This document shows positions 178 to 16,684 of a DNA stretch of 17,752 bases, piece by piece (the stretch's first letter is position 1; each line of letters opens with the position of its first letter). Below the pieces are notes generated by a model that saw only the letters and a program-made list of their open reading frames with translations, was not told the DNA's origin and searched no databases. This stretch comes from Promethearchaeati archaeon. Its GTDB lineage: Archaea; Asgardarchaeota; Heimdallarchaeia; JABLTI01. The DNA lies in contig JABLTI010000051.1 in the NCBI GenBank assembly GCA_013166835.1, positions 1 to 17,752 of the forward strand, read 5' to 3'. A program made the translations under genes and the position numbers.

Positions 178-189
178 AATTTGAAAAGA

Positions 190-213
190 GATGCTCAGGA
201 CTCACACTTCTTT
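190..213 (+). repeat. Junction repeat R1 (short, core only)
   Basis: GATGCTCAGGACTCACACTTCTTT. Confidence 0.9.
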
Positions 214-229
214 TAGAGGAGTAAAATCA

Positions 230-1066
230 TCAAGAATTTCTTTTTTTTCTTTTAAAAGCTTTCGAGAAATCAATTTCTTCTGGAAGATGTAAAACTCGAC
301 CTTCCATGCCACCTGCAATGGTAATGATCTCACCAGAAATATGACCTGATAATTTGTCTGATGCCAATACTGCAATCATATTTGCAATATCTTCTGATTC
401 GGCAATCTTTTTCAAGGGAACAGTTTTCAAAATATGTTTTATACCTTCTTCGTCGTCAAGATATTTTTCTGACATTGGAGAGACAGTCCACCCGGGACAA
501 ACGGCATTAACTCGCCCTAATCTTGCCACATTGATAATCTCATTTTTTAGGCTTCTAGTTAAGCCATAACTTATGGCAGCTTTTGCTGCAGCATAATCAG
601 CATGACCTGCCGCTCCAAAAACAGCAGAAGTAGAGCCTACAATAATAATACTAGCAGACTCACCATCATATTTTCGAAGTTGTTGTATAAAAGAACGACA
701 ACATAGGAAGACACTATCAAGGTCTATTGCCATGGTATGTTTCCATCTCTCCAAAGTCATTTTTTCAATTTCACTGTAGTCTTCCGGCCAGATGGCTGCA
801 TTACAAATAAGGATATCAATTCGACCTTTTTTCTTCTCAATTTCCTTAAACATTTCAAGAACTTGAGATTCACTCGAGAGATCAGCTTTAATACTAAAAG
901 TCTTCTTGCCTAATTCATTAGTTAATTTCTTAGCTCTAGTTTCACTACTATTGTAATGAACTATAACATCAACACCTTCTGCAGCAAGTAACCGAGCGGT
1001 AGCTGCACCAATACCACCTGAAGCACCAGTTATGAGTGCCACTTTTCCTTCAAGTTCTAAATCCAT
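230..1066 (-). CDS. Short-chain dehydrogenase/reductase (SDR, FabG-like)
   Basis: TGASGGIG Rossmann motif, YAAAK catalytic YxxxK, RVNAVCPG; 278 aa. Confidence 0.93.
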   Translation of the reverse strand: MDLELEGKVALITGASGGIGAATARLLAAEGVDVIVHYNSSETRAKKLTNELGKKTFSIKADLSSESQVLEMFKEIEKKKGRIDILICNAAIWPEDYSEIEKMTLERWKHTMAIDLDSVFLCCRSFIQQLRKYDGESASIIIVGSTSAVFGAAGHADYAAAKAAISYGLTRSLKNEIINVARLGRVNAVCPGWTVSPMSEKYLDDEEGIKHILKTVPLKKIAESEDIANMIAVLASDKLSGHISGEIITIAGGMEGRVLHLPEEIDFSKAFKRKKRNS

Positions 1067-1152
1067 CTCTATCGATTTTTATATGATTTAACCGAGTAAT
1101 TAGTTTTGGCATTGATTGTTTTAGTTAAAGAAATTTAAAAACGATAAATTAG

Positions 1153-1258
1153 TTGATGCTCAGGACTCACACTTCTTCTTGCCGGGTTAGCAGTCCGGTT
1201 CGGGAAGGACACGCGGAAGTGGGAAGAACCTGCTAGCTGAGCATCCCGCTGAAGACTC
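1153..1258 (+). repeat. Junction repeat R2 (full length, structured)
   Basis: TTGATGCTCAGGACTCACACTTCTTCTTGCCGGGTTAGCAGTCCGGTTCGGGAAGGACACGCGGAAGTGGGAAGAACCTGCTAGCTGAGCATCCCGCTGAAGACTC; perfect inverted repeat GATGCTCAG (1155-1163) / CTGAGCATC (1237-1245). Confidence 0.95.
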
Positions 1259-1384
1259 AACGAGCATACCACATACATTTTAACTGATCATACAAGAGAA
1301 CAGTTCTTTTACTAATTAAAATTTATATTAAGAAAACTCAACTAAAATTATATGAACTCTAGAAAAAATAAGGAAAGATAAGCT

Positions 1385-2167
1385 TTATCTACGTTTTATG
1401 ATTATTCTTATCCCTCCGATGACTACACCAGCAAATATCACAGCTCCAATTACTATGAGAACTATGACAAATAGTTTAATGGGGGGACTAGTTGCCAATG
1501 TTAAAGTTCCATATGTTTCTACGAATCCAGGAGCACCATCTTGGGGTACTTCCCAGCCACAAAGGTAAGTTGCTGCGCTAAACATTACTCTGATAGCACT
1601 GTTTTCTGTACCCACTGGAAGGGTGTTATTTAATTCTGTTGCGGTCGAGCTTCCATCATAGGAGTCATCAAAGGTTATACTAATGACTACTTCTATTATG
1701 GTGTGATGTGTTTCTTTATGAGGAGATGCACCAAATCCAATAGCCCATTCTGCAAAATCATTTCCTGGATTTGTATTACCAGGATCATGATCGCGGTCTA
1801 AAAACATAGTTAGGTTTTCATCAATAACTTCATCCCAATTAGCATCAAAGAACACCCAAAGATGGTCATCTACTTCTGAAGTGTTGTCGGGGAGATCATC
1901 AAATAGGAGGAAAAGTTTGCTATCAGTGTTTTTAATGTATATGTGGATAAAATCTGGGTCATGTCCGGGTGAGGGATCAGTATGGTTAAAAGATATATGT
2001 CTGGCATCTGCCCACTCATCCTCAGTAAAGGTGCCATCGATATCTGGTATAACCTTAGCCCAACGACTATCCATATAAGTAATTTGAGATTGAGTTGTGG
2101 TAGCTTCTAAAGCTCCCATTATAAAGAATAATAATAAAAACAGTGAAATTAACCTTCTTAGTTTCAA
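1385..2167 (-). CDS. Secreted, C-terminally anchored protein with a DOMON/CBM9-like domain
   Basis: TTG start after GTGGTG; N-terminal signal peptide; PDIDG...DEWADA motif; acidic body; C-terminal TM helix plus IIKRR. Confidence 0.65.
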   Translation of the reverse strand: MKLRRLISLFLLLFFIMGALEATTTQSQITYMDSRWAKVIPDIDGTFTEDEWADARHISFNHTDPSPGHDPDFIHIYIKNTDSKLFLLFDDLPDNTSEVDDHLWVFFDANWDEVIDENLTMFLDRDHDPGNTNPGNDFAEWAIGFGASPHKETHHTIIEVVISITFDDSYDGSSTATELNNTLPVGTENSAIRVMFSAATYLCGWEVPQDGAPGFVETYGTLTLATSPPIKLFVIVLIVIGAVIFAGVVIGGIRIIIKRR

Positions 2168-2301
2168 ATGAACACCACAATTTTTACTTTTAAGATATGA
2201 AAGATTCTTACTATATTATCAATGAAAAGGATTTATTTAAACTAGCTCCAACAAAAGTTTCGAATAGGTCAATTTTATATTTAATTTTTCATTTAAAATA
2301 A

Positions 2302-2349
2302 TTGATGCTTAGAACTCACAATTCATCTTTACAGCTAGTAGTTCGGTTC
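2302..2349 (+). repeat. Junction repeat R3 (degenerate, truncated)
   Basis: TTGATGCTTAGAACTCACAATTCATCTTTACAGCTAGTAGTTCGGTTC aligns to the first ~49 nt of the consensus. Confidence 0.8.
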
Positions 2350-2425
2350 AGTATGGAGTTAGTTCTTTAATTTAAAAGGAAAATTAGATTTTTCAGAATG
2401 AAAATAAATGACTTATTGATTATTT

Positions 2426-2887
2426 CTAAATCAAAACCCTAAGCTTGCATCTACTATTTCCCTTTGTTACAGTTTCCTCAAGAATAACTTCAACAGGTTT
2501 TTCTATTGCTGTTTCAAGAAGTTCTTTCACCCAACCTCGAGAGCAATTACAGAATGTAGGTGAAATCTTACCTGCGGGGATTTTGTTAATTACTGGGCAG
2601 TAACATTTATCCCATATAAATGCAACCTCTTCCTTTGTTATCTGTAAGCTGTCATATATTTTGCTTAATTTTCCAAGAAATTCTTTCATATCATTCGAAT
2701 TCTTATATAGGCTTTTAGCATCCTGGATGAGTTTCTTGTGTCTATCATGTATACACTTTCGTCCACATTCTTCTAGTAAGAGTATCTTTTTCTCAGGATC
2801 CAGGTGTTTATCAAATCCATCCATTAAATTAATCATCATTTTTTCGCATCGTTCCAAGAATTTAACACCTAAGAGTTTTTTATTCAT
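2426..2887 (-). CDS. Cys-rich DUF6144-like protein (V4R-like, probably metal-binding)
   Basis: CGRKC, CYCP, FCNCSRGW and a terminal Cys; 153 aa. Confidence 0.65.
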   Translation of the reverse strand: MNKKLLGVKFLERCEKMMINLMDGFDKHLDPEKKILLLEECGRKCIHDRHKKLIQDAKSLYKNSNDMKEFLGKLSKIYDSLQITKEEVAFIWDKCYCPVINKIPAGKISPTFCNCSRGWVKELLETAIEKPVEVILEETVTKGNSRCKLRVLI

Positions 2888-2953
2888 GTAATCAATACAG
2901 AGAAATAACTTATTTCCTATCTTACTACAATATTCTTGTTGAAATTAATATGA

Positions 2954-4120
2954 TTATCGCTGAAAATTGATGCATTCGCCCACACTTCTTCTTGAAGGTC
3001 TAGCAGTCCGTTTCTTTAAAGATAAAATGACTATGAAAATAAATGAGAAAAACACCAAGGAATAATTAAATCCTGGAATAGTTCTTGTAGTAGTTTCTAT
3101 TTGAAGTATTTCTAAACCATCTTCTCGATCTGCAACAAATAGAAGGTTATCCTTTACAAAGATTTTTTTTGCATGTCCACCATCAAAGTAACGGCCAATT
3201 TTATCTGGAATGACAGGATCGGAAAGATCAAGAGCTATTACCCCCCTATTGTAATCAGCAATGAAGGCAAAACTACTATTGAAGCTAATAGAATGCATAT
3301 TCCCGCCATCATCGAACTCACCAACTTTCACAATATTAGTTGGATCAGTTATGTTTAGTATTTGTATTTCTCCTCCATTCAAATAGTGATTTCCTACAAA
3401 AATATAATTTTCATAGATTTTCGGATCCCAGAAATCAGTTTCAGCAACTATGTGTGTTGATAATTGTTGAGGTGAGCTCGGATTTGAGATGTTAAGAAGT
3501 CTTATACTAGTATAATCATTTCTATGATCAGTTACACATGCTAAATCTCCCTTAATATCGAGTTGCATACAATTAAGGTAATTATAATTATATCGTACTA
3601 GCTTAACAGGACTCTCCGGATTTGTAACATTAAAAATCTCTAATCCATAATCCCAATTAGCAACAAATAATAAATCATCTTTAATCTCAACATCACTAGA
3701 ATAGGTATTTACCGGATATTGGTAGATTTCTTCAGGATGCGCTAAATCTGAAACGTTTATGATTTCCAAACCATCAGGACCATCTGCAACAAAAGCTAAG
3801 TCATCTTTAACCACAAGCTCCATAGCAGAACCACCATCAAATAAAGAAGCTAATTTAACAGGATTTGTAGGATCAGAAACATCTATGATAACCAACCCCC
3901 CAGGATTATTATCAGTAGTATCTAATACAAAAGCTATATCTCCCTGTAAAAAAACATTCATAGTTTCTCCATTGGTATCTATAGAACCTATTTCTGTGAA
4001 ATCTATCTGTATGTTTATCCTAGAACCATTAATTGCAGGAATGTTAAGGGAAAAGAAAATTATTATTACAACGATCATTTGACTAGTATTCTTCATAATG
4101 TTAGCTCTCAAATAACTCAA
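2954..4120 (-). CDS. LVIVD-repeat beta-propeller surface protein with a PGF-like C-terminal anchor; start may be ATG 4096
   Basis: Repeats GLVIIDVSDP, GLEIINVSD, GLEIFNVTNP, IQILNITDP, GVIALDLSDP; N-terminal signal; TTTRTIPGF-TM-KKR tail. Confidence 0.88.
   Translation of the reverse strand: MSYLRANIMKNTSQMIVVIIIFFSLNIPAINGSRINIQIDFTEIGSIDTNGETMNVFLQGDIAFVLDTTDNNPGGLVIIDVSDPTNPVKLASLFDGGSAMELVVKDDLAFVADGPDGLEIINVSDLAHPEEIYQYPVNTYSSDVEIKDDLLFVANWDYGLEIFNVTNPESPVKLVRYNYNYLNCMQLDIKGDLACVTDHRNDYTSIRLLNISNPSSPQQLSTHIVAETDFWDPKIYENYIFVGNHYLNGGEIQILNITDPTNIVKVGEFDDGGNMHSISFNSSFAFIADYNRGVIALDLSDPVIPDKIGRYFDGGHAKKIFVKDNLLFVADREDGLEILQIETTTRTIPGFNYSLVFFSFIFIVILSLKKRTARPSRRSVGECINFQR
2967..3014 (+). 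repeat. Junction repeat R4 (truncated; lies inside the 3' end of the LVIVD ORF)
   Basis: TTGATGCATTCGCCCACACTTCTTCTTGAAGGTCTAGCAGTCCGTTTC. Confidence 0.9.
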
Positions 4121-4238: not shown

Positions 4239-4268
4239 TTGATGCTCAGGACTCACACATCTTCTTTT
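4239..4268 (+). repeat. Junction repeat R5 (core only)
   Basis: TTGATGCTCAGGACTCACACATCTTCTTTT. Confidence 0.92.
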
Positions 4269-4330: not shown

Positions 4331-5467
4331 ATGAAAGTTGTTGTTTTAGGAGCAGGATATACAGGAAATGTTATTGCAAGAGATCTAGTAGAAGATCCCT
4401 CTACTGAGGTTTCAATAGTTGATATTAACCAAGAAGTTTTAGATAAACTAACACAGGATTATGATCTTCAAGGAATATGTGCAGATTTATCCAATCCCAA
4501 TATCATCAAAGATATTGTGAAGGATTTTGATTTAGTAATTGGAGCTCTTCCTAGTTTTATGGGTTATAAGTCTCTTGAAGCAGTAATTGAAGCAGGAAAG
4601 AACATGGTAGATATCTCATATTACGAGGGAGATGCGTTAAGCTTAGATGAAATAGCAAAGGAGAAAGGAGTTACAGCTGTTGTTGACTGTGGAGTAGCTC
4701 CTGGTTCAAGTAACATCATACTTGGGTATATTGATTCAATTTTAGATAAAACAGAAAGTTTCCTATGTTATGTTGGGGGATTACCGGTAGAAAGGAACTG
4801 GCTTTTTGATTATAAATCACCTTATCCACCTATTGAGGTAATCGAGGAATACATCCTATTAGCGAGATATATTGAGAATAATGAAGTAGTCGTTAAACCA
4901 GCATTATCTGAACTTGAACTATTAGATTTTCCAGAAGTAGGAACTCTTGTAGCCATCAATACCGATGGTCTTAGAACTCTCATCAAGACAATGGATATCC
5001 CTTTCATGAAAGAAAAAACACTAAGATATCCTGATCATATAGAAAAGATGCGAATGCTAATAGAAGCAGGATTCCTTATTACAGAGGAAATTGATGTAAA
5101 AGGAAAAATGATCAAACCAATTGAGTTAACATCTAGACTTCTATTTGATCATTGGATGTTTGAAGAAGGAGATGAAGATCATACTATTATGAAGATAGTT
5201 ATTGAAGGAATGAAAGATGACAAGAAACTACGTTATACCTATGATATGTATGATAAGTACGATAGAGAGAAGGGTATATTATCTATAGCAAGAACAACCG
5301 GATATACTTGTACAGCTGTTGCACAAATTATTCTTGAAGGAAAATTCAAAGAAAAAGGAATTATTCCTCCGGAACTATTAGGAAAACATTCAGAAGTCTA
5401 TCACCAAGTTATTGAATACTTACGGAAGAGAAATGTGATATTTAAGGAGACTATCGAAGAACTGTAA
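4331..5467 (+). CDS. Saccharopine dehydrogenase / lysine 6-dehydrogenase family oxidoreductase
   Basis: VVVLGAGYTG NAD-binding motif, MVDISY, DCGVAPG, YVGGLP, EKTLRYP, ARTTGY; GAGG RBS. Confidence 0.9.
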   Translation: MKVVVLGAGYTGNVIARDLVEDPSTEVSIVDINQEVLDKLTQDYDLQGICADLSNPNIIKDIVKDFDLVIGALPSFMGYKSLEAVIEAGKNMVDISYYEGDALSLDEIAKEKGVTAVVDCGVAPGSSNIILGYIDSILDKTESFLCYVGGLPVERNWLFDYKSPYPPIEVIEEYILLARYIENNEVVVKPALSELELLDFPEVGTLVAINTDGLRTLIKTMDIPFMKEKTLRYPDHIEKMRMLIEAGFLITEEIDVKGKMIKPIELTSRLLFDHWMFEEGDEDHTIMKIVIEGMKDDKKLRYTYDMYDKYDREKGILSIARTTGYTCTAVAQIILEGKFKEKGIIPPELLGKHSEVYHQVIEYLRKRNVIFKETIEEL

Positions 5468-5589
5468 GAACAAAACAATATATAGTAATTTTTAATGTTT
5501 ATGAATAGAAATTCTGTTCATTATAATGCAATTTTTCTCAATCGGTCTTTTTAGTTTGTCGTCAGAAACAGATGAAACTAAAAAAGATA

Positions 5590-5687
5590 ATGATTAGACC
5601 CACACTTCTTCTTTCCGGGCTAGCAGTCCGTTTCGGGAAGGACACGCTGAAGTGGGAAGTACCTGCTAGCTGAGCAACTCACCCGAA
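5590..5687 (+). repeat. Junction repeat R6 (near full length, left arm diverged)
   Basis: ...GACCCACACTTCTTCTTTCCGGGCTAGCAGTCCGTTTCGGGAAGGACACGCTGAAGTGGGAAGTACCTGCTAGCTGAGCAACTCACCCGAAG. Confidence 0.95.
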
Positions 5688-5709
5688 GGAATTAAAATAG
5701 CTTATGAAA

Positions 5710-7383
5710 CTATAATCCAGATGTATTTACAATGAAAATTGCATAGCCAATAAAACAAACAAGAATAGAAAATAACACAATTATTAACCTAAAAACTATA
5801 ATGAAATAATCCCTTTTAGCCCATAATTGCTTTTCTAATTTTCTTAATTCCTTTCTTTTGCCTATTTTCTCTTCTAATTCATCTCTAGATTCTACATACA
5901 AATTAATCTGTGTAAGTACTCCTTTACGTGTAGTACAAATTTCTGTTAGAAAGATTGCAGCAAATGCTAATCCTACAAGAGGTGCAAGAATTCGATAAAA
6001 CCACATTAGATTAGATTCTTGATTATCTAACACATAACCAAGAACAGTTACTGCTGTAGAACCAATTGATGTTAAAAATGATTTTGTAATTTCTTGAGTT
6101 ACTTTGGTAGTTGCTTTTGTGACATCAGTTACAATTGTTCTAAGAGATTTTTCAATAAATTCAGTTGATTTTTTCAGATCTGCTATTTTTCCTTCTATCA
6201 AATTTCTCTTGAATACACTATATTGGGTAATTAATTCTTCATAAAAATCGTATAGTTTATTTAGATGACGAAATTCTGTTTTCTGGAGTTTTTCTATACT
6301 GTAATTTCTTATTTCTCTTTCAGTTCCTATTCCAGAAAAATAACCCATATTAACGAATCTAGTTACTATTTCGATAATTTTCTCTTTTGTGTATTCATAT
6401 GAATTATCCTCTTTTTTTAGATCACCAACGATTAAACTACCAGATATTTCATTATGTATGAAGTTTAATCTTTGTTTTGGATTATAAACAAAAGAGAGTT
6501 CAAATTCATTTTTATCTTCTGATATTATTGACACCTTTTCTGAGATTATGGAATATATTGTATACATGATTATTCTTGAATATGAAAGCCAATATTTTTC
6601 GGTAAGTTCATCTATCTTAATATTCTCAAAAGCAATAGGAAATATTGGTGTATTTTCAACAAATTCAGTTTCAATTTTATAGTTACTTAATAAATCCTTT
6701 ACTAAATCAACTTTTATCTTATTTTTATTTAGATCTTTAGTATTTTCTGCTATTTTATCCAATGAGATAATTTCAAAGAAATTAGAAAAATATATGTTAT
6801 TATTTGGAACTATTATAGCTACAATTTTACCTTTTTCAATCAGATTTTCGCTTAAGTCTAATAAGTTAGCACTTTTCATATAACCATTAAATTTATCAAG
6901 ACTACTCCAAAAACATAATTTATAAGCTTCAGACAAATCGTATTGATCGTGAATATAATTACTAATTCTTATTTTCCTGATTATAAGGAATAAATTTGTT
7001 AAACTATGTGTTTTAGAATTTAGGATTTCTTTCTTTATTTCTTCTTGAAGTTTTTTAAAAATTTCTTTTTTTGAAATATCAACATCTTTTACACTCATTA
7101 GTTTTGGAATTTTAGATGCAAATAATTTAATATCTTCAGTACGTGTTATTTCAAAGTTCTCTTTTACTTGAAGTGTAAATTCATTTTTAGTTTCTTTGTT
7201 CTTTAAACTGATTCCTAATGTGAATTCTAAATAGTCGATCTTTTCATTAAGATTAACCCAAAAATCATGTTTCAAAAGGAGCTCTTTATTCTCGGTTAAA
7301 TCTAAATCTATTGATCTGAAAGTCTCCTCATACTTCAACTTTTGTTTTTCAATAAACGAAAGTATTTTTGGAATTTCAACCAA
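5710..7383 (-). CDS. Hypothetical protein, large soluble region plus ~3 C-terminal TM helices and coiled coil
   Basis: 557-aa ORF; TTG start after GAGGTG; hydrophobic segments only in the last ~125 aa; 37 nt downstream of the co-oriented 302-aa gene. Confidence 0.8.
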   Translation of the reverse strand: MVEIPKILSFIEKQKLKYEETFRSIDLDLTENKELLLKHDFWVNLNEKIDYLEFTLGISLKNKETKNEFTLQVKENFEITRTEDIKLFASKIPKLMSVKDVDISKKEIFKKLQEEIKKEILNSKTHSLTNLFLIIRKIRISNYIHDQYDLSEAYKLCFWSSLDKFNGYMKSANLLDLSENLIEKGKIVAIIVPNNNIYFSNFFEIISLDKIAENTKDLNKNKIKVDLVKDLLSNYKIETEFVENTPIFPIAFENIKIDELTEKYWLSYSRIIMYTIYSIISEKVSIISEDKNEFELSFVYNPKQRLNFIHNEISGSLIVGDLKKEDNSYEYTKEKIIEIVTRFVNMGYFSGIGTEREIRNYSIEKLQKTEFRHLNKLYDFYEELITQYSVFKRNLIEGKIADLKKSTEFIEKSLRTIVTDVTKATTKVTQEITKSFLTSIGSTAVTVLGYVLDNQESNLMWFYRILAPLVGLAFAAIFLTEICTTRKGVLTQINLYVESRDELEEKIGKRKELRKLEKQLWAKRDYFIIVFRLIIVLFSILVCFIGYAIFIVNTSGL

Positions 7384-7420
7384 ATCTACACCTCATCTTT
7401 ATATTAATTAAATATGAAAT

Positions 7421-8329
7421 CTAGGAAAATACAAATTCCTCATTGTAATATTTTACAATTATTTTCTCATTCTCAATTCTTATTGAACAATTATCATTTA
7501 CATCTATTGCTCCTGATTTATCAATGTACTTAATTTCTGTATTCAATTGAGCTGCATCAGAAGTTAATCGAATACTCTTTTTTATATCAACACCAGGAAA
7601 TTCCTTTTCTTTCTGTTTTATTATCCTAATTAATTCAGATAAAAATTGAGTTAATGTCAACTTTTCTGCATATTTTACTGACAATTCCTCATCAATTTCA
7701 CTTTCAAGACCAGTAGTTTTAGTACCTAATCCTAGTGCTTTTACAAAATACTTTGCAGGAGGATATTTTTGATATACTTTTACAAAATTACTATTAAATA
7801 CTAGAAAAGCGTTTATTGATGGATAGAGTGCAGATTTTGTGCTATCACTTCCCAAAATTTGTTTTGCTGATTCTATATCTCTTGCACCAAGTTTTATTCT
7901 ATCATCTAAATTATATCTTAACAACAGTGAACATTTAGTACCGTTTAATTCAAAACAAATCATAATTAAAGCAGCTTTTCTTGCTGATGTAACTTCAGCA
8001 TATTCATCTGCAAAATTCTCGCTAAAAACATCCCATTCAGACAAATTATTATGTTTCAATCCATCTATGAAGAAAAACTTTGTCTCTTTTTTCTTTTCAT
8101 CAAATTTAGGAATTCTTTCGACTTTAATATTCATAGCACTCTTATTTGTTATGTCTTTATTAATTTCAGAAAAGATTGCTTTAACAACGAGACTATAGAT
8201 TTCCTTTGGAATCTTTTCTTTTGTTATCAAGTGTCTAGTTCTATCTTCTTTCTTTTCTTCTCTTGGTAAGCTAATTAACACAGAATAAAATTTGATATCC
8301 AATTCATCCTCTAATTTCCTTTCAGGCAA
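7421..8329 (-). CDS. Hypothetical protein, possibly NdpA/YejK nucleoid-associated-protein-like
   Basis: 302-aa ORF; TTG start after GGAGGG; KSALYP...VKVYQ...AKYFVKALG resembles the YFxxFLG motif of that family (weak, by eye). Confidence 0.6.
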   Translation of the reverse strand: MPERKLEDELDIKFYSVLISLPREEKKEDRTRHLITKEKIPKEIYSLVVKAIFSEINKDITNKSAMNIKVERIPKFDEKKKETKFFFIDGLKHNNLSEWDVFSENFADEYAEVTSARKAALIMICFELNGTKCSLLLRYNLDDRIKLGARDIESAKQILGSDSTKSALYPSINAFLVFNSNFVKVYQKYPPAKYFVKALGLGTKTTGLESEIDEELSVKYAEKLTLTQFLSELIRIIKQKEKEFPGVDIKKSIRLTSDAAQLNTEIKYIDKSGAIDVNDNCSIRIENEKIIVKYYNEEFVFS

Positions 8330-8418
8330 ATAATTCCCTCCTGAATCCCTGTTATATATAATAATTTAACAAAATAAAACTTTTTTCCATAAGAGGAAAG
8401 AAAAAACAGCTATTATAA

Positions 8419-8459
8419 TTGATGCGTCGAACCCACACTTCTTCTTGAAGGGCTAGTAG
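8419..8459 (+). repeat. Junction repeat R7 (truncated)
   Basis: TTGATGCGTCGAACCCACACTTCTTCTTGAAGGGCTAGTAG. Confidence 0.88.
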
Positions 8460-8495
8460 ATATCTAATCTGAATAAAAAAATAAGAAAACAATAA

Positions 8496-8537
8496 TTGAT
8501 GCTCGGACTCACACTTCCTCTTTAAGATTAGAAAGTC
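8496..8537 (+). repeat. Junction repeat R8 (truncated)
   Basis: TTGATGCTCGGACTCACACTTCCTCTTTAAGATTAGAAAGTC. Confidence 0.88.
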
Positions 8538-8671: not shown

Positions 8672-9037
8672 ATGAAATATATGACAACAAAAAACAAGAT
8701 TGCTAGGTATTGTGGTTCAATTTGTGATAATTGCAAATTTTTCAAAGGTGTAAAAGAACCCAAATGTCTTGGTTGCTTAAGTTGCGCTGGAAAACCGTTT
8801 TGGGGCAAATGTAATGTCGCTGAATGTGCAATAAATAAGAAGATAGAACATTGTGGACTTTGTGCTGATTTTCCATGTGAGTTGTTACCAAAGCAATTTG
8901 ATCCAAATAATCCTCGAGGAAAAGAAGAAGCTATATTTCGAATTGGACATCTTGCAATAAGAGCAAAAATTGGTACAGAACAATGGTTAGAAAAATTAGC
9001 TAATGGTTATTTAGTGAGTTTTATTTCTGAAGACTAA
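8672..9037 (+). CDS. DUF3795 Cys-rich protein
   Basis: CGSICDNC, CLGC, CNVAECA, HCGLCADFPCELL; 121 aa. Confidence 0.85.
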   Translation: MKYMTTKNKIARYCGSICDNCKFFKGVKEPKCLGCLSCAGKPFWGKCNVAECAINKKIEHCGLCADFPCELLPKQFDPNNPRGKEEAIFRIGHLAIRAKIGTEQWLEKLANGYLVSFISED

Positions 9038-9146
9038 AGAAAGATAGCTAAATCTCTATTATTTTTTAGATTCTAATAATCAAATGTTGATAATAATTAG
9101 TTAATGATTAACAATTGTTTGTTTAAAAAACATTCAGTAGAAAAAA

Positions 9147-9186
9147 GATGCTTAAGTCTTACACTTCCTCTTTAAGGTCTAGAAGT
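9147..9186 (+). repeat. Junction repeat R9 (degenerate, truncated)
   Basis: GATGCTTAAGTCTTACACTTCCTCTTTAAGGTCTAGAAGT. Confidence 0.82.
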
Positions 9187-9289
9187 ATATTAAGGTGTAT
9201 TTTCAAGTATCTGTTAGAAAAAAGGAAATGTTAAGAAGAGGTAAGTTTAGTATTTAGATATTCATTGAAAATACATTGATTGATCTTTT

Positions 9290-10627
9290 CTATATTTTCT
9301 CTACTTTAGAGATTTCCATACGAGTAAATAATAGGAAGGAAGCTAATAAGGATACACCATAAATTAGCTGACTAAGAATGTTTACACTAGGGTGGATATT
9401 ATTAAAGTTGGTAGTCATAAAAGGCAAAAATAAGATAAGAATCATTCCAAGTAAGAAACAAGCAATTACTATTTGTAAAATTAATTCATATTTTTGTAAT
9501 TTTTGTTTTTTTATAGCAAATTTATATCCTAACACAATGGTCATACTACCTAAGGGGGCAATAATAAATTCAGCTAATCCGATTGGTATAAGTAGATATT
9601 TCCCAATAGTCTGTATAATTTCCCAATAATGTCTTTCCAAATCTTCAAATTGATCGTTAATGATACCTCTGAAATTCCTTGTAACTCTTTTTTTCCACCA
9701 ATCAGATAGTTTTCTTCTTTTTCCTTTGAAATCTTTAGGTGCAAGATTCACCTCAGGATTGCGGATTTTCTTTACAGAAGGTATTATATAGAAAGATAGA
9801 ACGCTAATTACTGACATGACACCTTTATAGTATTTATTAGCTATGATACGCTCAAAAGTATCTAAAACTAGATAAAAAGTATTAGTCTCAACTCCACTTC
9901 CTAGGTTAATGATAAGTATTGCTTTTACGATAACCGCGATGGTTAATAAAACTCCAACAATAGTCATTAGATAAATAGGGATTATCATTATTAACTTAAA
10001 TCGCTGGGGGTATATTTCTTCCTGGGTATCAATTATTCTTTCTTCAAATTTACTTCGATGTTTATCTATTTCTTTCTGCAGATCTTCTTTCTTGTTTTGG
10101 ATCTCTTGTTGAAATTCCTTCTTCTCTTTTAGTAATTTCTCTTTTTCATTGGCATTTTTTCTTAACTCTATTTCTTTCTGTTCAGAGGATAAGGAAGATT
10201 TCTCGTCATTCAAAAGCTGATGGTTATCTTCAAGTTTACTTTCTTTTTCTTCGAAAATCCTCTTTTGTTTCTCTTCCTTTAATTTTAATTTTTCCAATTC
10301 CTTTTCAATAGCTTTTATCTTTTTTTGACTATAGGGTTTTTTCTTTGAAGTCTTTGTAAGCCAGTTAATGATTTTTTGAGCAATAGGTATATAGCCTATT
10401 ATAAAACCAAATCCACTCATAATTTGAGTGAAGAATGAAAATATTAGCATTGGATAAAAGATTAACCCTAAGAAATTACCATCAAAAACTGATACAAAAA
10501 CAATTGTTACAACTAGAATCAATGTACCAACTGCAAATGCAAAATAGTATTTTTTATCAATTAAAGCTAATGGGTGTTTGTTTTTATTTTGCATCTCTTT
10601 TACCCCTTTTACATAATGATATTTCAT
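9290..10627 (-). CDS. Hypothetical multi-pass membrane protein with a ~100-aa coiled-coil insert; start may be ATG 10594
   Basis: Two N-terminal TM segments, K/E/Q-rich helical stretch, then ~5 more hydrophobic segments. Confidence 0.75.
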   Translation of the reverse strand: MKYHYVKGVKEMQNKNKHPLALIDKKYYFAFAVGTLILVVTIVFVSVFDGNFLGLIFYPMLIFSFFTQIMSGFGFIIGYIPIAQKIINWLTKTSKKKPYSQKKIKAIEKELEKLKLKEEKQKRIFEEKESKLEDNHQLLNDEKSSLSSEQKEIELRKNANEKEKLLKEKKEFQQEIQNKKEDLQKEIDKHRSKFEERIIDTQEEIYPQRFKLIMIIPIYLMTIVGVLLTIAVIVKAILIINLGSGVETNTFYLVLDTFERIIANKYYKGVMSVISVLSFYIIPSVKKIRNPEVNLAPKDFKGKRRKLSDWWKKRVTRNFRGIINDQFEDLERHYWEIIQTIGKYLLIPIGLAEFIIAPLGSMTIVLGYKFAIKKQKLQKYELILQIVIACFLLGMILILFLPFMTTNFNNIHPSVNILSQLIYGVSLLASFLLFTRMEISKVEKI

Positions 10628-10688
10628 TTATCTGTTTTCTTGTTAAGAAAAGGACATCTTTAATGCCAAAAAATCAACTACAATTAAG

Positions 10689-10795
10689 TTTATACTCAGG
10701 TCTCACACTTCCTCTTTAAGGGCTAGAAGTCCATTTTGGTAATAACACGCTTAAGTGGTAAGTATCTGCTGGCTGAGCATCTCGCCCGAAAACTC
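10689..10795 (+). repeat. Junction repeat R10 (full length, diverged)
   Basis: TTTATACTCAGGTCTCACACTTCCTCTTTAAGGGCTAGAAGTCCATTTTGGTAATAACACGCTTAAGTGGTAAGTATCTGCTGGCTGAGCATCTCGCCCGAAAACTC. Confidence 0.92.
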
Positions 10796-10958
10796 GTTAA
10801 AACTATTACTTACTATCAATAAAGGTTTAAATCAGAAAAGACAAAATTGTTTATTTGCCATGATTATTGGATTAGAAACTAGAAGCTCTTAACAAAAGCA
10901 TTTACATAGATGATAATCTCAATTACACTAAGAATTAATAAAATACACGAGGAATTAC

Positions 10959-12221
10959 ATGGTAATCACAATTTTAACAGGTGGTACAAGAGGAGACACT
11001 CAACCATACATTGCTCTCGGGTTGGCCTTGAAAAAAGAAGGATATAAGATCCGTATTGCGACATTTGAAAATTATGAATCCTTTGTGAAAAACTATGGTT
11101 TGGATTTTTATCCAATAAAAGGAGATGTCAAAGAGGTTGCTACAAGCAATATCATGGATAGTGCTATGCAAGCTGATAATCCTCTCAAGTTTATTTTCAG
11201 TTTTAGAAAGCTAAGATCACTTGTTTTTAATTTACAAGATGATTTTTACAATGCGTGTCAAGGCTCAGAAGCAATTGTTTATCATCCAGGAGTTACAATG
11301 GGATTTTTCGCTGCGCAACAACTTAGAATTCCAAGTATTTTAGCGATTCCTTTTCCAATGACTCCAACAACAGAATTTCCATCAATAATCTTTTATAATA
11401 GACCAAGTTTAGGAAAACAATACAATCGATTAACACATGAATTAATCGAAAGAACAATGTGGTTTGGTTCTAAAGCAGCAGTTAGGCGATTCTGGAAAAA
11501 GAAATTTGGCAGACGACCAAAAAACTTTCGAAATCCATTCAAAAAACAAACCACAAAGGATTTCCCAACAATAGTTTCTTGTAGTCAACATGTTTTTCCA
11601 AAACCAAAAGATTGGTCAGAACATGTCCATAATACCGGATATTGGTTTTTAGATGAAGAAAAAGATTGGAAAGCATCTAAGGAATTACAAGCATTCTTAA
11701 AAGCAGGTAATCCTCCCATTTACGTTGGATTTGGTAGTGTTAAAGATGCAAAAACAGCTGTAAAAACATCGAATATAGTAATAGACGCTTTAAAACGCAA
11801 TAACATGCGAGGAATTTTAGCAACTGGCTGGAAGAGTATGATGATGGATAATGATAATCAAGAAGATTTTTTCATTCTAGAGAGTGTTCCACATTCATGG
11901 TTATTCCCTCAAATGGCTGCGGTAGTTCATCATGGAGGTGCAGGAACAACAGGAGCAACTCTAAGAGCAGGAATTCCCAATATTATTATCCCATATAGTA
12001 ATGATCAATTTGGTTGGGGTCGACGGATATTTGAACTTGGTGTGGGGCCAAAACTAATTCCTAGAAAGAAACTTACGACAGAGAAATTGGCAAAAGCAAT
12101 TAAGCTTTCTCAGTCTAAAGAAATAATAGATGCAGCTAATCAATTAGGAATAAAAATAGATAAAGAGAATGGAGCTAAGAAAGCTGCAAAAATAATAAGC
12201 AGTACATTAAACAATAATTGA
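10959..12221 (+). CDS. GT1 glycosyltransferase (sterol 3-beta-glucosyltransferase-like)
   Basis: GTRGDTQPYIALG, YVGFGS, VPHSWLFPQMAAVVHHGGAGTT, DQFGWG; GAGG RBS. Confidence 0.92.
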   Translation: MVITILTGGTRGDTQPYIALGLALKKEGYKIRIATFENYESFVKNYGLDFYPIKGDVKEVATSNIMDSAMQADNPLKFIFSFRKLRSLVFNLQDDFYNACQGSEAIVYHPGVTMGFFAAQQLRIPSILAIPFPMTPTTEFPSIIFYNRPSLGKQYNRLTHELIERTMWFGSKAAVRRFWKKKFGRRPKNFRNPFKKQTTKDFPTIVSCSQHVFPKPKDWSEHVHNTGYWFLDEEKDWKASKELQAFLKAGNPPIYVGFGSVKDAKTAVKTSNIVIDALKRNNMRGILATGWKSMMMDNDNQEDFFILESVPHSWLFPQMAAVVHHGGAGTTGATLRAGIPNIIIPYSNDQFGWGRRIFELGVGPKLIPRKKLTTEKLAKAIKLSQSKEIIDAANQLGIKIDKENGAKKAAKIISSTLNNN

Positions 12222-12247
12222 TGCTCATGACTCACACTTCTTCTTTT
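12218..12247 (+). repeat. Junction repeat R11 (core only; supplies the glycosyltransferase stop codon)
   Basis: TTGATGCTCATGACTCACACTTCTTCTTTT; TGA at 12219-12221. Confidence 0.92.
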
Positions 12248-12377: not shown

Positions 12378-13712
12378 GTGAATCTGCTGAAAAACATAAA
12401 TTTGGTGCAATATTTGGAACAAACAAGGCTAGAAAATAACACTAGAATAAATAATGAAAAGAGAATTGAAGAATTGGGTGAAAGTAAAGGGAAAACCATT
12501 TTTTCGATAATTTTTGTTGGATTTTTAACACTGCTAACTATTACTGCCGTAACACTATTACATTCAAATCAACAAGAATTTATTTTAGATCGATTTGTAG
12601 GGATTAGTAAATTTGAGTTTTCGTTATTTGATTCTACTGTATATGTTGCTTATTTCTTAACTGGAATCGTAATTAGTGTTTTATCTGGCAAACTTGCTAA
12701 AAGAAAAATCTTCATTGTTATTGGTAGTATTGGTGCAGCTTTATTTTTCTACTTAATGACTTTAACAGTAAATTATTTCTTGTTATTATTCTTGAGGTTT
12801 CTTCAAGGATGCTTTTCAATTATAGTTTGGCAAACTCTCATGACCATTGTCCTGGATTTATCAACTCCAAATGATCGTGGTAGAAATATGGGCATATTTG
12901 GCATTCTACTGGCATTAGGTATGGGATCGGGACCATTTTTAGGGGGATTTATAGCAGATGTCGGAGTTTTTATTCCTTATTATGTTGCTTCTGGATTAAT
13001 GATTCTTGTTTTGTTTTTGTCACTCTTTCTAAAAGAACCTACTAGTCTTAAAGGAGGAGTAACTGTAAAAGAAAGCCTAAACATTTTGAAAAGTGACCCA
13101 AAAATTATAGTTCCAAGTTTGTTCAATTTCATTGATCGATTGCATATGGGATTCATTATTTTTGCTTTGCCATTAATTATCGGGTTAGATACTTCTGAAG
13201 GAGGATTAGCATTAGAACCAAGATTTAGAGGAATGGCATTTGGTATCTTTGCCTTACCTTACATTTTATTGCAATATCCTTTTGGAAAACTCTCAGATAA
13301 AATAGGTCGATACCCTCAATTGCTAATTGGGAGTATTTGTTATGGGATAGTGTTAAGCTTTGTAGGATATTTCGGAGGAGAATCATTTGGAGTACTATTA
13401 ACAATACTAGTATTCTTAGGACTATTTTCAGGGGTGACCTCTCCACCATCTATGGCTTTAGTGGGAGATAGTTTAAATGATACAAAGAAAAATAGCGCAG
13501 CAATGGGCATTTTCACACTTTTAGGGAATATCGGAATAGCATTAGGACCAGTTATTGCTGGTTCAATGTTACAACTTGGTTTTGGATTAACTTTCTTAGT
13601 GGCAGGAATAATAGAAGTTTTCTTTTTGATAGTAAATATAATTCTGATTCGATTTGTTTTCAAAGAGAAATTATTTAGAAAAAATGACTTAAAACCCACA
13701 CTTCTTCTTTAA
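12378..13712 (+). CDS. MFS transporter; true start probably downstream (e.g. TTG 12474)
   Basis: ~12 TM helices; motif A variants SGKLAKRK and GKLSDKIGR; RFLQG; GPFLGG. Confidence 0.9.
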   Translation: MNLLKNINLVQYLEQTRLENNTRINNEKRIEELGESKGKTIFSIIFVGFLTLLTITAVTLLHSNQQEFILDRFVGISKFEFSLFDSTVYVAYFLTGIVISVLSGKLAKRKIFIVIGSIGAALFFYLMTLTVNYFLLLFLRFLQGCFSIIVWQTLMTIVLDLSTPNDRGRNMGIFGILLALGMGSGPFLGGFIADVGVFIPYYVASGLMILVLFLSLFLKEPTSLKGGVTVKESLNILKSDPKIIVPSLFNFIDRLHMGFIIFALPLIIGLDTSEGGLALEPRFRGMAFGIFALPYILLQYPFGKLSDKIGRYPQLLIGSICYGIVLSFVGYFGGESFGVLLTILVFLGLFSGVTSPPSMALVGDSLNDTKKNSAAMGIFTLLGNIGIALGPVIAGSMLQLGFGLTFLVAGIIEVFFLIVNIILIRFVFKEKLFRKNDLKPTLLL

Positions 13713-13760
13713 GGGCTAGCAGTCCGGGGCGGGAAGGACACGCATAAGATTGGGTAGAAC
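13684..13760 (+). repeat. Junction repeat R12 (overlaps the MFS 3' end and supplies its stop)
   Basis: ACCCACACTTCTTCTTTAAGGGCTAGCAGTCCGGGGCGGGAAGGACACGC to 13743, then a degenerate match to ~13760. Confidence 0.92.
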
Positions 13761-13823
13761 AGATTTTAGAGTGGGAATTTAGTTTAAATACTAATAAAGT
13801 ATAATAAATAATGAGGATACAAT

Positions 13824-14060
13824 ATGACAATTGAAAAGAAAAAAATAACCATCTTAATTGAAAAGGATCAAGATGGTATCCTTATTGCATCTGCTCCAGA
13901 GTTACCTGGATGTTATACTCAAGCAAAAAGCTTGAATGAATTAATGAAGCGAATAGAAGAAGCAGTAGATTTGTATTTAAAAAGTGTTGATAAGGAATTT
14001 AGTGAAAATCTTCTGAAGGATTTTGTTGGGATACAATTTCTAGAGGTTCCTATCGGATGA
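13824..14060 (+). CDS. hicB: HicB-family antitoxin (short UPF0150 type)
   Basis: IEKDQDG...APELPGCYTQAKSLNELMKRIEEAVDLYL; ATGA overlap with the next gene. Confidence 0.9.
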   Translation: MTIEKKKITILIEKDQDGILIASAPELPGCYTQAKSLNELMKRIEEAVDLYLKSVDKEFSENLLKDFVGIQFLEVPIG

Positions 14061-14284
14061 AACTCAGACCTCTTGCAGCTCGAAAAGTAATCAAAGTATT
14101 AACTAAAGTTGGTTTTGTAATTGTTAGAAAGAAAGGCAGTCATGTTATCTTGAAACATCAAGATGGACGATTAATTGTGGTGCCAGATCATAAAGGAGAA
14201 GAGATAAGCAAAGGTCTTTTATTAAAAATAATCAAAGATTCCAAATTATCCAAAGATGAATTCTATAAGTTGGCAGAAAAATAG
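14057..14284 (+). CDS. hicA: HicA-family mRNA interferase toxin
   Basis: GFVIVRKKGSHVILKH...VVPDH...GLLLKIIK; basic 75-aa protein. Confidence 0.93.
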   Translation: MKLRPLAARKVIKVLTKVGFVIVRKKGSHVILKHQDGRLIVVPDHKGEEISKGLLLKIIKDSKLSKDEFYKLAEK

Positions 14285-14328
14285 ACGCATTAGTTTTGTA
14301 ATCAATTTAGTAAGTTCTAACAACAAAA

Positions 14329-14368
14329 ATGCTCAGGACTCACACTTCTTCTTTAAGGGTTAGAAGTC
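14329..14368 (+). repeat. Junction repeat R13 (truncated)
   Basis: ATGCTCAGGACTCACACTTCTTCTTTAAGGGTTAGAAGTC. Confidence 0.93.
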
Positions 14369-14585
14369 ATTATTTATTTTAGAATTAATTTGAAAATAAT
14401 TTCTTGGAATTAGAAACAGCTATTGGCTTAAGCTCCAATTCCACATTTTTATTTTTGTAATATTTTTAACTCTAAATTTTCATTGGGAAAAAGTGATAGG
14501 TGTGATTTTTTAGCAAGAAAAAATGCATTTTAACAAAATTGTTATTACAAGTGATTTTGTTAATTGTTAATAAGAGAGGAATAAA

Positions 14586-16535
14586 TTGAATAAAAAATCA
14601 ATATTCTTCTTACTCTTCCTCATAATTATTGTTGGATTAGTAATAGCTACTCCTATTATCCTTTTTAATATTAAATTTAAGACAAGTATTTCCTTGCCAT
14701 CTCCTGATATTAATGGAGAAATGCTATTAGAAGATGCTCTTTTGATCGTTAATCAAACACCGTCTTTCCTACCTATTGAACAGTTATCACTACAAACACT
14801 CAGCCAATTATTATGGTCTATGCAAGGGATTACTCATGGACAGAAACGAACTACTCCATCTGCAGGAGCATTGTATCCGTTAGAATTGTACATTTATGCT
14901 TTTGACATAGAAAATTTGCCTGTTGCTCTTTACCACTATACACCAAAAGGGCATGGCATCAATCTCATTCAAGAAAAGAATATCTCGAGAAGCTATGTAG
15001 CTGATTCATTGCTTCCAATTAATAATGACCTTAATCAGGCTCAAGCTTTGGTTTTCATATCAATTGTTCCAGAACGCACAACAACAAAATATGGATCGAG
15101 GGGGATACAGTACATACAACTCGAGATTGGGCATGTTCTAGGCAATCTATACCTTCAAGCTGTAACAACTGATGTTCATGTTGAACCTATTTTTCAATAC
15201 AATCAAACAAAAATTCAGGAGGAATTTGAAATAGAGGAAGAGATCGCAGTTATTATTCCATTAATTAAGTGTGCTTCATATGAATCGACAATCATGCCAG
15301 AATTGCTTCAAGAAAACCTGTTAGAGAATAATATCGAAACAAATGGTTTAACTGTAGAACAGGCTATTTACATAAGACAATCAATTCGAAACTACGAACA
15401 GCAAGACATTACCTTATCAGCATTGAAACGATTATTTTGGTTTACTTTTGCCAATAAAACAAGATGGTTATCAAGTGCAACAAAACCAATTACTTTCACT
15501 GCAGTTTCAGCAGTTTACCTGTTTTTGGTTACTAGTGATAAAACAGAAGACCTAGAAAAAGGGATTTATGAGCTTTCTAGTGAGGAATTCAATATCACAT
15601 CATTCAAGTTAGGAGAATATATTTCAGATCTTTATGAAGCTGGTTTATCTCAAAGCATGATTAATACAGCAGCATTTAATACCATATTTTTGTTAAACAC
15701 GACTTTACTTCGAGAACATCTTATCGAAGACTACATACCCCTTGGTATGTATGAAGTTGGTATGATATCTCAATTTCTATATTTGGAATCAAGAAATCTT
15801 AACCTTGGAATGGTTGTAGTGGGAGCATTTTATGATTTTCAAGTAACAAAACTTTTAGATGATATTATTTCCCAACCTGTTTATATTATCCCTATTGGCG
15901 TATCAGAATTAGGAGATATTGATTTCAGACTATATACTATAAGTAAATATTCTCTAAGTAAAACTTTTGGCATTTTAACTTTGGTTCTATTCTATTTTTC
16001 ATGCTTTATGGCAACTAATACAATAAAAAACAGGTTTAGGAAGAATTGGTTAAGGATACACCACATTTTCTCCTCGGGATTTTCAATATTATTTCTTTTA
16101 ACTCATTTCATTCTAATAATCGATGTATTATCTTTCTTTCAAAGCTCCCAGACCGGATATGCATTTCTTGAAATGCTAAAGAAAATAATAGGCTATAATT
16201 TAGCTCCTATTGATTCTCTCTACAAAGTTGGCCTTTTAACGTCAATAATTGCTTTATGGCTGATAATTCTATTGAATGTTCTCCCATATGTTCTGCTTAA
16301 GATCAAGAAAATCTCAATAAAAACAAGGAGAGTAATTCATCAAGTTTTAATTGGTGTAATATTGTTATGCAGCTACATTCATGTTTATGCTAATTGTTTA
16401 AGCAGTTCATTGTATTATTGGTTATTTTTCACAGGAAACCTAGGCATTATTCTTTTATACTTAGGTTTGCACTACCATCGATCATTTACTAGTTTATGGA
16501 AAAATAAAGGTGTAGAAAACATAACTACTGAATAA
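14586..16535 (+). CDS. Membrane protein: tandem SagB/ThcOx-type nitroreductase domains plus a ferric-reductase-like (cytochrome b) TM domain
   Basis: N-terminal TM; RTTPSAGALYPLELY, KYGSRG, EIGHVLGNLYLQA; second domain RQSIRNY...LNLGMVVVGAF...YIIPIG; C-terminal TMs with two H-x13-H pairs. Confidence 0.8.
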   Translation: MNKKSIFFLLFLIIIVGLVIATPIILFNIKFKTSISLPSPDINGEMLLEDALLIVNQTPSFLPIEQLSLQTLSQLLWSMQGITHGQKRTTPSAGALYPLELYIYAFDIENLPVALYHYTPKGHGINLIQEKNISRSYVADSLLPINNDLNQAQALVFISIVPERTTTKYGSRGIQYIQLEIGHVLGNLYLQAVTTDVHVEPIFQYNQTKIQEEFEIEEEIAVIIPLIKCASYESTIMPELLQENLLENNIETNGLTVEQAIYIRQSIRNYEQQDITLSALKRLFWFTFANKTRWLSSATKPITFTAVSAVYLFLVTSDKTEDLEKGIYELSSEEFNITSFKLGEYISDLYEAGLSQSMINTAAFNTIFLLNTTLLREHLIEDYIPLGMYEVGMISQFLYLESRNLNLGMVVVGAFYDFQVTKLLDDIISQPVYIIPIGVSELGDIDFRLYTISKYSLSKTFGILTLVLFYFSCFMATNTIKNRFRKNWLRIHHIFSSGFSILFLLTHFILIIDVLSFFQSSQTGYAFLEMLKKIIGYNLAPIDSLYKVGLLTSIIALWLIILLNVLPYVLLKIKKISIKTRRVIHQVLIGVILLCSYIHVYANCLSSSLYYWLFFTGNLGIILLYLGLHYHRSFTSLWKNKGVENITTE

Positions 16536-16557
16536 TTCCCAACTAGAAAAACATGCA

Positions 16558-16590
16558 GCTCAGGACTCACACTGCTTCTTTACGGACCAG
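16558..16590 (+). repeat. Junction repeat R14 (short)
   Basis: GCTCAGGACTCACACTGCTTCTTTACGGACCAG. Confidence 0.88.
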
Positions 16591-16684
16591 TTACTTTCAC
16601 CTAGAGTTAAAAGAAAACTAATAGATATGGATACCATGACTGACATTGATGTCAACAGTTGAGAAATAAAGAGAAGGAATACAT

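Follow-up and report, generated by a model that had tools for sequence, protein, structure and literature searches.

A probable integron-like gene-cassette island anchored on displaced copies of the 23S rRNA tail in a Heimdallarchaeia genome

Gene blocks and repeats of the window

The window, meaning the whole 17,752-nucleotide stretch analysed here, is an entire contig of a 3.56-Mb, 260-contig genome (G000) and carries 15 mutually unrelated ORFs, seven on the minus strand and eight on the plus strand. The leftmost is a short-chain dehydrogenase (SDR) gene (230..1066, minus strand), followed on the same strand by three cassettes spanning 1385..4120, which encode an unknown 260-aa product (1385-2167), a DUF6144-like protein (2426-2887) and an LVIVD-repeat protein (2954-4120). 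A saccharopine-dehydrogenase-like gene lies on the plus strand (4331..5467); a two-gene cassette for unknown proteins of 557 and 302 aa lies on the minus strand (5710..8329); and three cassettes at 8672..12221 encode a DUF3795 protein (8672-9037, plus), a membrane-transport-like protein (9290-10627, minus) and a GT28-type glycosyltransferase (10959-12221, plus). The remainder (12378..17752) is read entirely from the plus strand, comprising an MFS transporter (12378-13712), a HicB/HicA toxin-antitoxin pair (13824-14284), a nitroreductase-domain protein (14586-16535) and an aldo/keto reductase running from 16685 to the window end.

The gaps separating these gene blocks hold one repeat each, irrespective of gene direction, with two in a single gap. 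Searching the window for the 13-nt core of the repeat (CACACTTCTTCTT, at most two mismatches) gives 14 matches, 14/14 on the plus strand, against 0.78 expected by chance, a count reached in none of 200 shuffles. A preliminary description of this DNA had presented 1153..1258 as a full-length repeat; the repeat family is real, but the element itself is longer, extending over about 1147-1289 in local alignment of this copy (R02) to the longest copy in the same genome. The GC-rich character of the element on an AT-rich background, noted in the same description, is evident from a GC content of 56.6% in 1153-1258 compared with 31.7% window-wide.

Read in the rRNA sense, which for every window copy is the minus strand, a complete repeat consists of a piece of 23S rRNA tail, a proximal trailer, the core and a distal end belonging to one of a few types. 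R02 (1147..1289) has all of these: ∼88 nt of 23S 3′ tail, ∼22 nt of proximal trailer, the core AAGAAGAAGTGTG and a type-a end (GAGTCCTGAGCATCAA). Near full length are also R06 (5583..5688; ∼53 nt of 23S tail, trailer, core) and R10 (10689..10796; ∼58 nt of 23S tail, trailer, core), the latter being the copy closest to the true 23S ends of relatives. These three are the only near-complete copies among the 14, with R12 (13673..13760) as a fourth that holds ∼27 nt of 23S tail, trailer and core; in the 11 copies other than R02, R06 and R10 the left 28-40 nt are present and the right side is lost at differing points. Thus, R04 (2966..3022) keeps core, trailer and ∼7 nt of 23S; R07 (8415..8460) and R13 (14329..14366) keep the core and a partial trailer; R08 (8491..8526), the second copy in the gap occupied by R07, keeps the core and a few trailer bases; R03 (2291..2349) and R09 (9129..9185) have a degenerate core and a partial trailer; and R14 (16558..16590) is a degenerate core. 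R01 (178..217), R05 (4239..4266, 28 nt) and R11 (12206..12245) consist of the core and a type-a end; R01 has no 23S part and abuts the 3′ end of the SDR gene, at a junction common to the copies of the SDR cassette on G005:C38 and on C141. The window copies inspected mostly have a type-a distal end, with that of R06 being different.

Three ORFs (2954-4120, 10959-12221 and 12378-13712) extend into a repeat for their last codons or stop codon, R04 overlapping the 3′ end of the first and R11 and R12 containing the stop codons of the second and third; ORFs of integrons often likewise draw their last codons or stop from attC. With an nhmmer profile built from four window copies (R02, R06 and R10 as full-length copies, plus R12), 29 matches are found in the genome as a whole, on six contigs and in a single direction on each.

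Origin of the repeat and retention of its core

DNA homology identifies the repeat as the 3′ end of the 23S rRNA gene, copied to another place together with its 3′ trailer and lying antisense on the plus strand of the window. In a genome of the same genus (G005, contig C98), the archaeal large-subunit rRNA model LSU_rRNA_archaea (RF02540) is covered over positions 1-2987 with 2339.8 bits, ending at L038:12769, and the first copy of the repeat array in this genome is the 23S tail itself with ∼50 nt of trailer; the 23S ends of G009, G008 and G006 likewise match the repeat profile. In BLAST comparisons with the 23S end and trailer of G005, R10 is 88.9% identical over 108 nt (E 3.8e-33) and R02, matched against the Rfam-defined end, is 79.5% identical over 122 nt (E 9.5e-22), while R10 has 83-90% identity to the 23S ends of G009, G008 and G006. 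The longest copy in the window's own genome extends 132 nt into the 23S gene, and only the last ≤132 nt of 23S and the trailer are repeated, with no other part of the 23S gene or of its leader.

Covariance-model scans of the repeat itself are silent: Rfam 15 returns nothing at E≤1 for the whole window, only a chance-level queA match (11.2 bits, E 8.6) for 1120-1320, and no match for 1185-1289 or for contigs C33, C215 and C112. Rfam gives no score to a fragment as short as R02, and the identification as 23S therefore rests on DNA homology. The own assembly (84.75% complete) gives no match to a 23S gene, so that adjacency of the array to 23S is shown in relatives only. The G005 23S gene spans 4.3 kb for a 2987-position model and therefore holds one or more introns; an ORF for a LAGLIDADG endonuclease lies inside it, at 100717-101274 of G005:C98 (L038 10717-11274). 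5S rRNA (RF00001) was found in none of five genomes of the genus (G000, G005, G008, G009, G010), compared with 13 of 14 control genomes, and the available text of the circular-Heimdallarchaeum paper likewise describes 5S as not predictable (PMC8813620).

The repeat is present in all 10 of the other same-genus genomes and in none of the 30 genomes searched from other genera of the class. The nhmmer search yields 153 matches in 41 sources (the window and 40 loci), in one orientation within each source, a count that refers to the pieces searched and not to the whole of contig G005:C98. In both G005 and G008, the 23S gene is immediately followed by the array. On the 130-kb G005 contig, 11 same-direction copies occupy the 26 kb behind 23S, beginning at 102.7 kb and continuing as far as the contig end; in G008 there are just two, both short, within 4.7 kb; and an equivalent position is likely for the array of G010, where 23S is cut off by the end of one contig and the array is on another. 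G009 has a 23S tail with no array detected behind it; a tblastx comparison of its downstream flank with the array loci and the own genome gave a single short match, in the distal flank of G010, and nothing in the own genome, evidence too slight for an empty site to be defined. In four genomes from other Heimdall genera, the 20 kb downstream of 23S contain no further copy of the genome's own 23S tail.

Solitary copies occur on G000:C33 and C215, and a pair on G008:C71 is found among housekeeping genes. The copy on G000:C33 (L003 3215-3351) is a mini-copy, also among housekeeping genes, ∼150-290 nt upstream of the SRP54 gene, in which two cores flank only 18 nt and a fragment of 23S end and trailer, resembling an empty cassette or a secondary site. 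A small second set of cores, in the opposite direction, is present at ∼54.4-60.7 kb of G005:C98 (L074, L080), ∼43 kb upstream of the rRNA gene, and includes an SDR cassette and the one next to it, paralogous to those on G005:C38.

Aligned in the rRNA sense, with the four true 23S ends among the 153 matches in 41 sources left out, 149 array copies can be compared. The core AAGAAGAAGTGTG is kept with three or fewer mismatches in 138 of these, and the 23S-derived part amounts to 0 nt in 29 copies, 1-25 nt in 52, 26-50 nt in 39 and more than 50 nt in 29. Beyond the core, the distal ends fall into a few discrete types (a in 44 copies, b in 19, c in 7), with the other 79 fitting none. In G005, G008 and G009, the trailer from the 23S end through the core pairs with the 23S leader at −67 to −68.5 kcal/mol (raw RNAduplex energies). 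Whole-genome searches of three genomes from other genera, with the G016 tail and trailer as query, gave strong extra matches only in antisense just upstream of the 23S 5′ end, and two weak ones (E 0.004 and 0.008). The core would thus correspond to the 3′, or trailer, strand of a predicted pre-23S processing stem. Complementarity to the leader is also seen in the distal ends: the type-a end (GAGCATCAATTAT) is complementary to a conserved leader motif, ATTATTGATGCGC, which lies ∼130 nt upstream of the proximal strand of the processing stem, at L038 8314-8326 and likewise in G008 and G009, and types b and c are complementary to the GTAGAAGGCC segment of the leader. Many copies are followed, in the rRNA sense, by T runs.

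Cassette exchange and competing explanations

Cassettes are exchanged and reordered between species and strains, with breakpoints in the 13-28-nt core. The SDR cassette recurs at 96% identity on G005:C38, 90% on G003:C215, 87% on C141 of the own genome and 84% at 55 kb of G005:C98; in the comparison with G005:C38, homology of the cassette (190-1180) spans core to core and stops at both, and the 23S-like sequence remaining on the right-hand side of R02 is part of the neighbouring cassette. G003:C103 carries the saccharopine-dehydrogenase gene in a coreless copy, whose homology begins ∼10 nt beyond R05. Across the 10 same-genus genomes, the sharing of cassettes is patchy. Strains were compared by placing the contigs, not the reads, of four public DNA runs on the window, and most contig joints, having sides of less than 30 nt inside repeats, were set aside. 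In run X8, from another study, a 1473-nt contig at a depth of 181 joins position 5614, where the R06 core ends, to 2995, immediately beyond the R04 core (short side 183 nt), giving another cassette order. The same run carries some window cassettes at 93-99% identity and lacks others, with a depth of 0-2.6 per bin over several cassettes compared with ∼150-190 over others; the island is polymorphic in nature, and a related strain is present in the X8 samples.

The repeat is therefore the mark of a site of gene capture, not a novel folded RNA. Toxin-antitoxin pairs are numerous in the arrays of G000, G005, G008 and G010, which also hold a restriction-modification unit, further defence-type genes, enzymes and transporters, a cargo typical of such islands. 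These observations are best accommodated by an integron-like additive gene-cassette island anchored on displaced copies of the 23S tail, a reading to which a probability of roughly 0.7 can be attached. The whole window would then be a part of such an island, which in relatives starts directly behind the 23S gene. Each repeat copy would comprise 0 to ∼130 nt of mature 23S tail and the 3′ trailer, and each cassette would carry one accessory gene or two, pointing either way; followed in the rRNA sense, it would open with the distal part of a trailer and close with the proximal trailer and the core AAGAAGAAGTGTG, preceded in some cassettes by a fragment of 23S tail. The core is the putative working recombination site, and the GC-rich 23S remainder, on which the stems of the preliminary description lie, may be a hitch-hiker lost by deletion, which would account for the trailer core being kept while the GC-rich part erodes. 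Counted against the cassette-island reading are the lack of an age gradient of copy length away from 23S in the G005 array, and copies lying away from 23S, such as the opposite-direction cassette at 55 kb on G005:C98.

Exchange at the core could be effected by a site-specific recombinase acting in trans or by general homologous recombination between repeats. Recombinase and transposase families match none of the 208 ORFs of the array contigs (15 + 26 + 40 + 127), and in five relatives none of 16 tyrosine-recombinase matches falls on a repeat-bearing contig. The own genome, at 84.75% completeness, has no Y1 transposase (PF01797; none among the array ORFs either) and no serine recombinase or resolvase, and IntI (TIGR02249) scores at best 20.6 bits when the genome is searched, or 33 bits for the ORF itself, where the cut-off is 265. 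Its single tyrosine recombinase, the only candidate enzyme, is XerA-like (L007 934-1992, on G000:C61), with 352 aa compared with a 263-position profile and a score of 117 bits against an equivalog cut-off of 220; a ∼355-aa form of it is also present in G005, G007 and G010. Inspection of the sequence shows that, compared as inverted repeats, the two 11-nt halves of the retained 28-mer agree at 4 of 11 positions. Lacking dyad symmetry such as dif sites or att cores have, the core gives no demonstration of site-specific recombination, and homologous recombination between repeats stays a live alternative.

Three described kinds of mobile site were considered and set aside. Integron attC sites and CALINs share with the arrays the tandem sites in one direction, but the R″/R′ boxes, a supported hairpin and, in the 84.75% of the genome available, IntI were not found; a regular-expression search of both strands for R″ (RYYYAAC) and R′ (GTTRRRY) pairs returned no candidate in the window and none of the 14 repeats bounded by them, where shuffled windows hold a mean of 4.2 candidate pairs. 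IS200/IS605 ends are disfavoured by the missing Y1 (HUH) TnpA, and a Xer/dif module by the missing 28-bp site with two inverted 11-bp arms and a 6-bp spacer.

A bolder form of the cassette-island reading, possible if on balance doubtful, is that of an Asgard gene-capture platform analogous to the integron, in which cassettes would be inserted, excised and shuffled at the 13-28-nt processing-stem core by a host factor in trans, with no dedicated integrase. The XerA-like recombinase might serve in this way or, more speculatively, machinery that recognises the processing stem.

It is less probable that the copies are passive scars, an explanation in which larger integrase-bearing elements (viruses, plasmids or islands) were serially integrated at the 23S end, much as happens at tRNA genes, and then decayed, leaving inert att remnants, with strain differences arising through ordinary deletion and homologous recombination. 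The want of a recombinase in or beside the arrays, the truncation of most copies, inter-copy gaps of up to 10 kb in G005 and the presence of other tyrosine recombinases elsewhere in the genomes of relatives are consistent with this unlikely history. However, the units are mostly of one or two genes, single cassettes are common to several species with breakpoints inside the core, and no integrase remnant is found among the 208 ORFs; the core, moreover, persists in 138 of the 149 copies despite an eroding 23S flank, where neutral decay predicts otherwise.

A regulatory role is improbable as a complete account. Copies might be kept for the processing-stem strand and a T-rich terminator region, insulating cassettes from read-through of the strong rRNA promoter or directing endonuclease processing, as would suit a core that forms the trailer strand of the predicted stem and the T runs behind many copies; but genes point both ways relative to the repeats (seven compared with eight in the window), the first copy alone would suffice to stop rRNA read-through, and cassette exchange at the cores is left unexplained. 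Such a role may be compatible with, and exist alongside, the cassette-island explanation.

The preliminary description had instead proposed that the repeat acts through its own fold, either as single-stranded DNA in the manner of attC or of an IS200/IS605 end, or as a pseudoknotted structured RNA. Its base complementarities exist. The outer-stem strands GATGCTCAG (1155-1163) and CTGAGCATC (1237-1245) are complementary, as are CACTTC and GAAGTG, the proposed pseudoknot partners; the mini-hairpin variants are present (CCG-GTT-CGG in R02, loops TTT in R06 and GGG in R12, and CCA-TTT-TGG in R10); and a second stem can be formed with CTGCTAG (1230-1236), with the correction that its left strand reads TTAGCAG in R02 (1187-1193) and CTAGCAG in R06. 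R02 nevertheless folds no better than shuffled sequence (z −0.9 to −1.8), with z of −1.00 for plus-strand DNA (31 of 200 shuffles as good), −1.45 for minus-strand DNA (20/200), −0.88 for plus-strand RNA (39/200) and −1.84 for minus-strand RNA (6/200).

Nor did the covariation reported for a few copies persist in a larger alignment of 39 full-length copies from eight genomes of the genus (the window, two other contigs of its genome and seven other genomes), in which the four proposed helices show nothing significant over shuffles: 66.9% of cells are paired, compared with 66.8 ± 0.5% after shuffling (243 of 500 shuffles as high), and the covariation score is 0.125 compared with 0.120 (119 of 500 as high). 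In the outer stem only 51.9% of cells are paired, and the CCA/TGG change of R10 is the sole A-U cell at its pair. The paired fraction does exceed the 26-44% obtained when partners are slid by one to three columns, as expected for a structure derived from a single sequence. Ten of the 14 copies in the window lack the right-hand strands, that is, the 3′ halves of the outer stem, second stem and pseudoknot; no outer-stem partner is present in the true 23S trailers of G008 and G009; and GATGCTCAG is, in the Rfam alignment, a part of the terminal hairpin of 23S in true rRNA. With the repeat continuous with LSU_rRNA_archaea (RF02540) in a same-genus genome and covariation absent, the structured-RNA interpretation was not borne out, and the single-stranded DNA mechanism likewise finds no support in attC R″/R′ motifs, IntI or a Y1 transposase, none of which was found. 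What survives of the likeness to attC is functional, namely one same-direction repeat per cassette and exchange breakpoints within the repeat; attC motifs, hairpin and IntI do not form part of it. Function through the element's own fold, the stems of R02 and R06 notwithstanding, is accordingly very improbable.

Relation to known systems

Integration hotspots at the ends of tRNA and tmRNA genes, and integrons, are the textbook routes by which prokaryotes stack accessory genes. The same outcome appears here to be built on the 23S tail and a processing arm, the most conserved kind of genome anchor, in an Asgard setting with no integrase in sight and with a cargo of defence and toxin-antitoxin genes. 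Should the core prove an active site, it would offer a tractable handle on gene exchange in these archaea, and displaced 23S tails would provide a simple metagenome marker for their flexible genome. Such arrays break assemblies and are consequently under-reported, and their GC-rich rRNA-tail copies can be mistaken for novel structured RNAs, as happened in the preliminary description.

Archaeal tRNA genes are said to capture integrative elements serially, and tycheposons reportedly form arrays in Prochlorococcus. Integration at the end of an RNA gene leaves tandem partial gene copies as att remnants, a likeness to the arrays described here; however, tRNA-captured elements and tycheposons are larger units with a tRNA target, and carry or are mobilised by identifiable integrases. 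A second parallel is provided by elements that exploit Xer/dif and by pdif modules, which are integrase-free gene modules bounded by short sites and served by the host recombinase in trans. Compatible with this model, the XerA-like enzyme is the only tyrosine recombinase in the own genome; unlike such modules, the core is not a 28-bp dyad and the site adjoins an rRNA gene, not the replication terminus.

A closer counterpart at the level of the island is found in Alteromonas, where additive flexible genomic islands at the 3′ ends of tRNA and tmRNA genes have a direct repeat, comprising part of the RNA gene, downstream of the inserted cassettes (PMC4898812). As far as the available text of that study goes, both systems feature a hotspot directly behind a stable-RNA gene, varied cassettes that differ between close strains, and identical cassettes shared across species; the present arrays differ in their anchor, which is the 23S tail and the pre-rRNA processing arm in place of a tRNA, in their Asgard host, in the abundance of repeats (14 in 17.7 kb and 29 nhmmer matches genome-wide), and in that the kept part is mostly trailer and not gene. 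The SAR11 hypervariable region HVR2 (bioRxiv 10.64898/2026.04.03.716430) offers a looser parallel, an accessory region that is hypervariable throughout the genus, is linked with the 16S-23S rRNA genes and is packed with genes gained horizontally; in the accessible portion of that report, tRNA genes serve as conserved anchors, and repeated 23S tails or cassette boundaries are not described.

A literature search, confined in part to partial texts, returned no paper on cassette arrays built on copies of the 23S tail, although the supplementary attC lists of a survey of archaeal integrons (Ghaly et al. 2022, PMC9668308) could overlap the arrays described here. Compared with integrons and CALINs as portrayed in the available text of that survey, the present arrays have a repeat derived from an rRNA gene, without R″/R′ motifs, IntI or a supported hairpin, and their genes point both ways, where integron ORFs generally share one orientation (PMC9668308). 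In common with integron arrays and CALINs, including those of archaea, as set out in the same text, they have tandem cassettes of one or two genes, repeats in one direction, frequent toxin-antitoxin cassettes, repeats that are more alike within a genome or genus, and an integrase that is often not nearby (PMC9668308).
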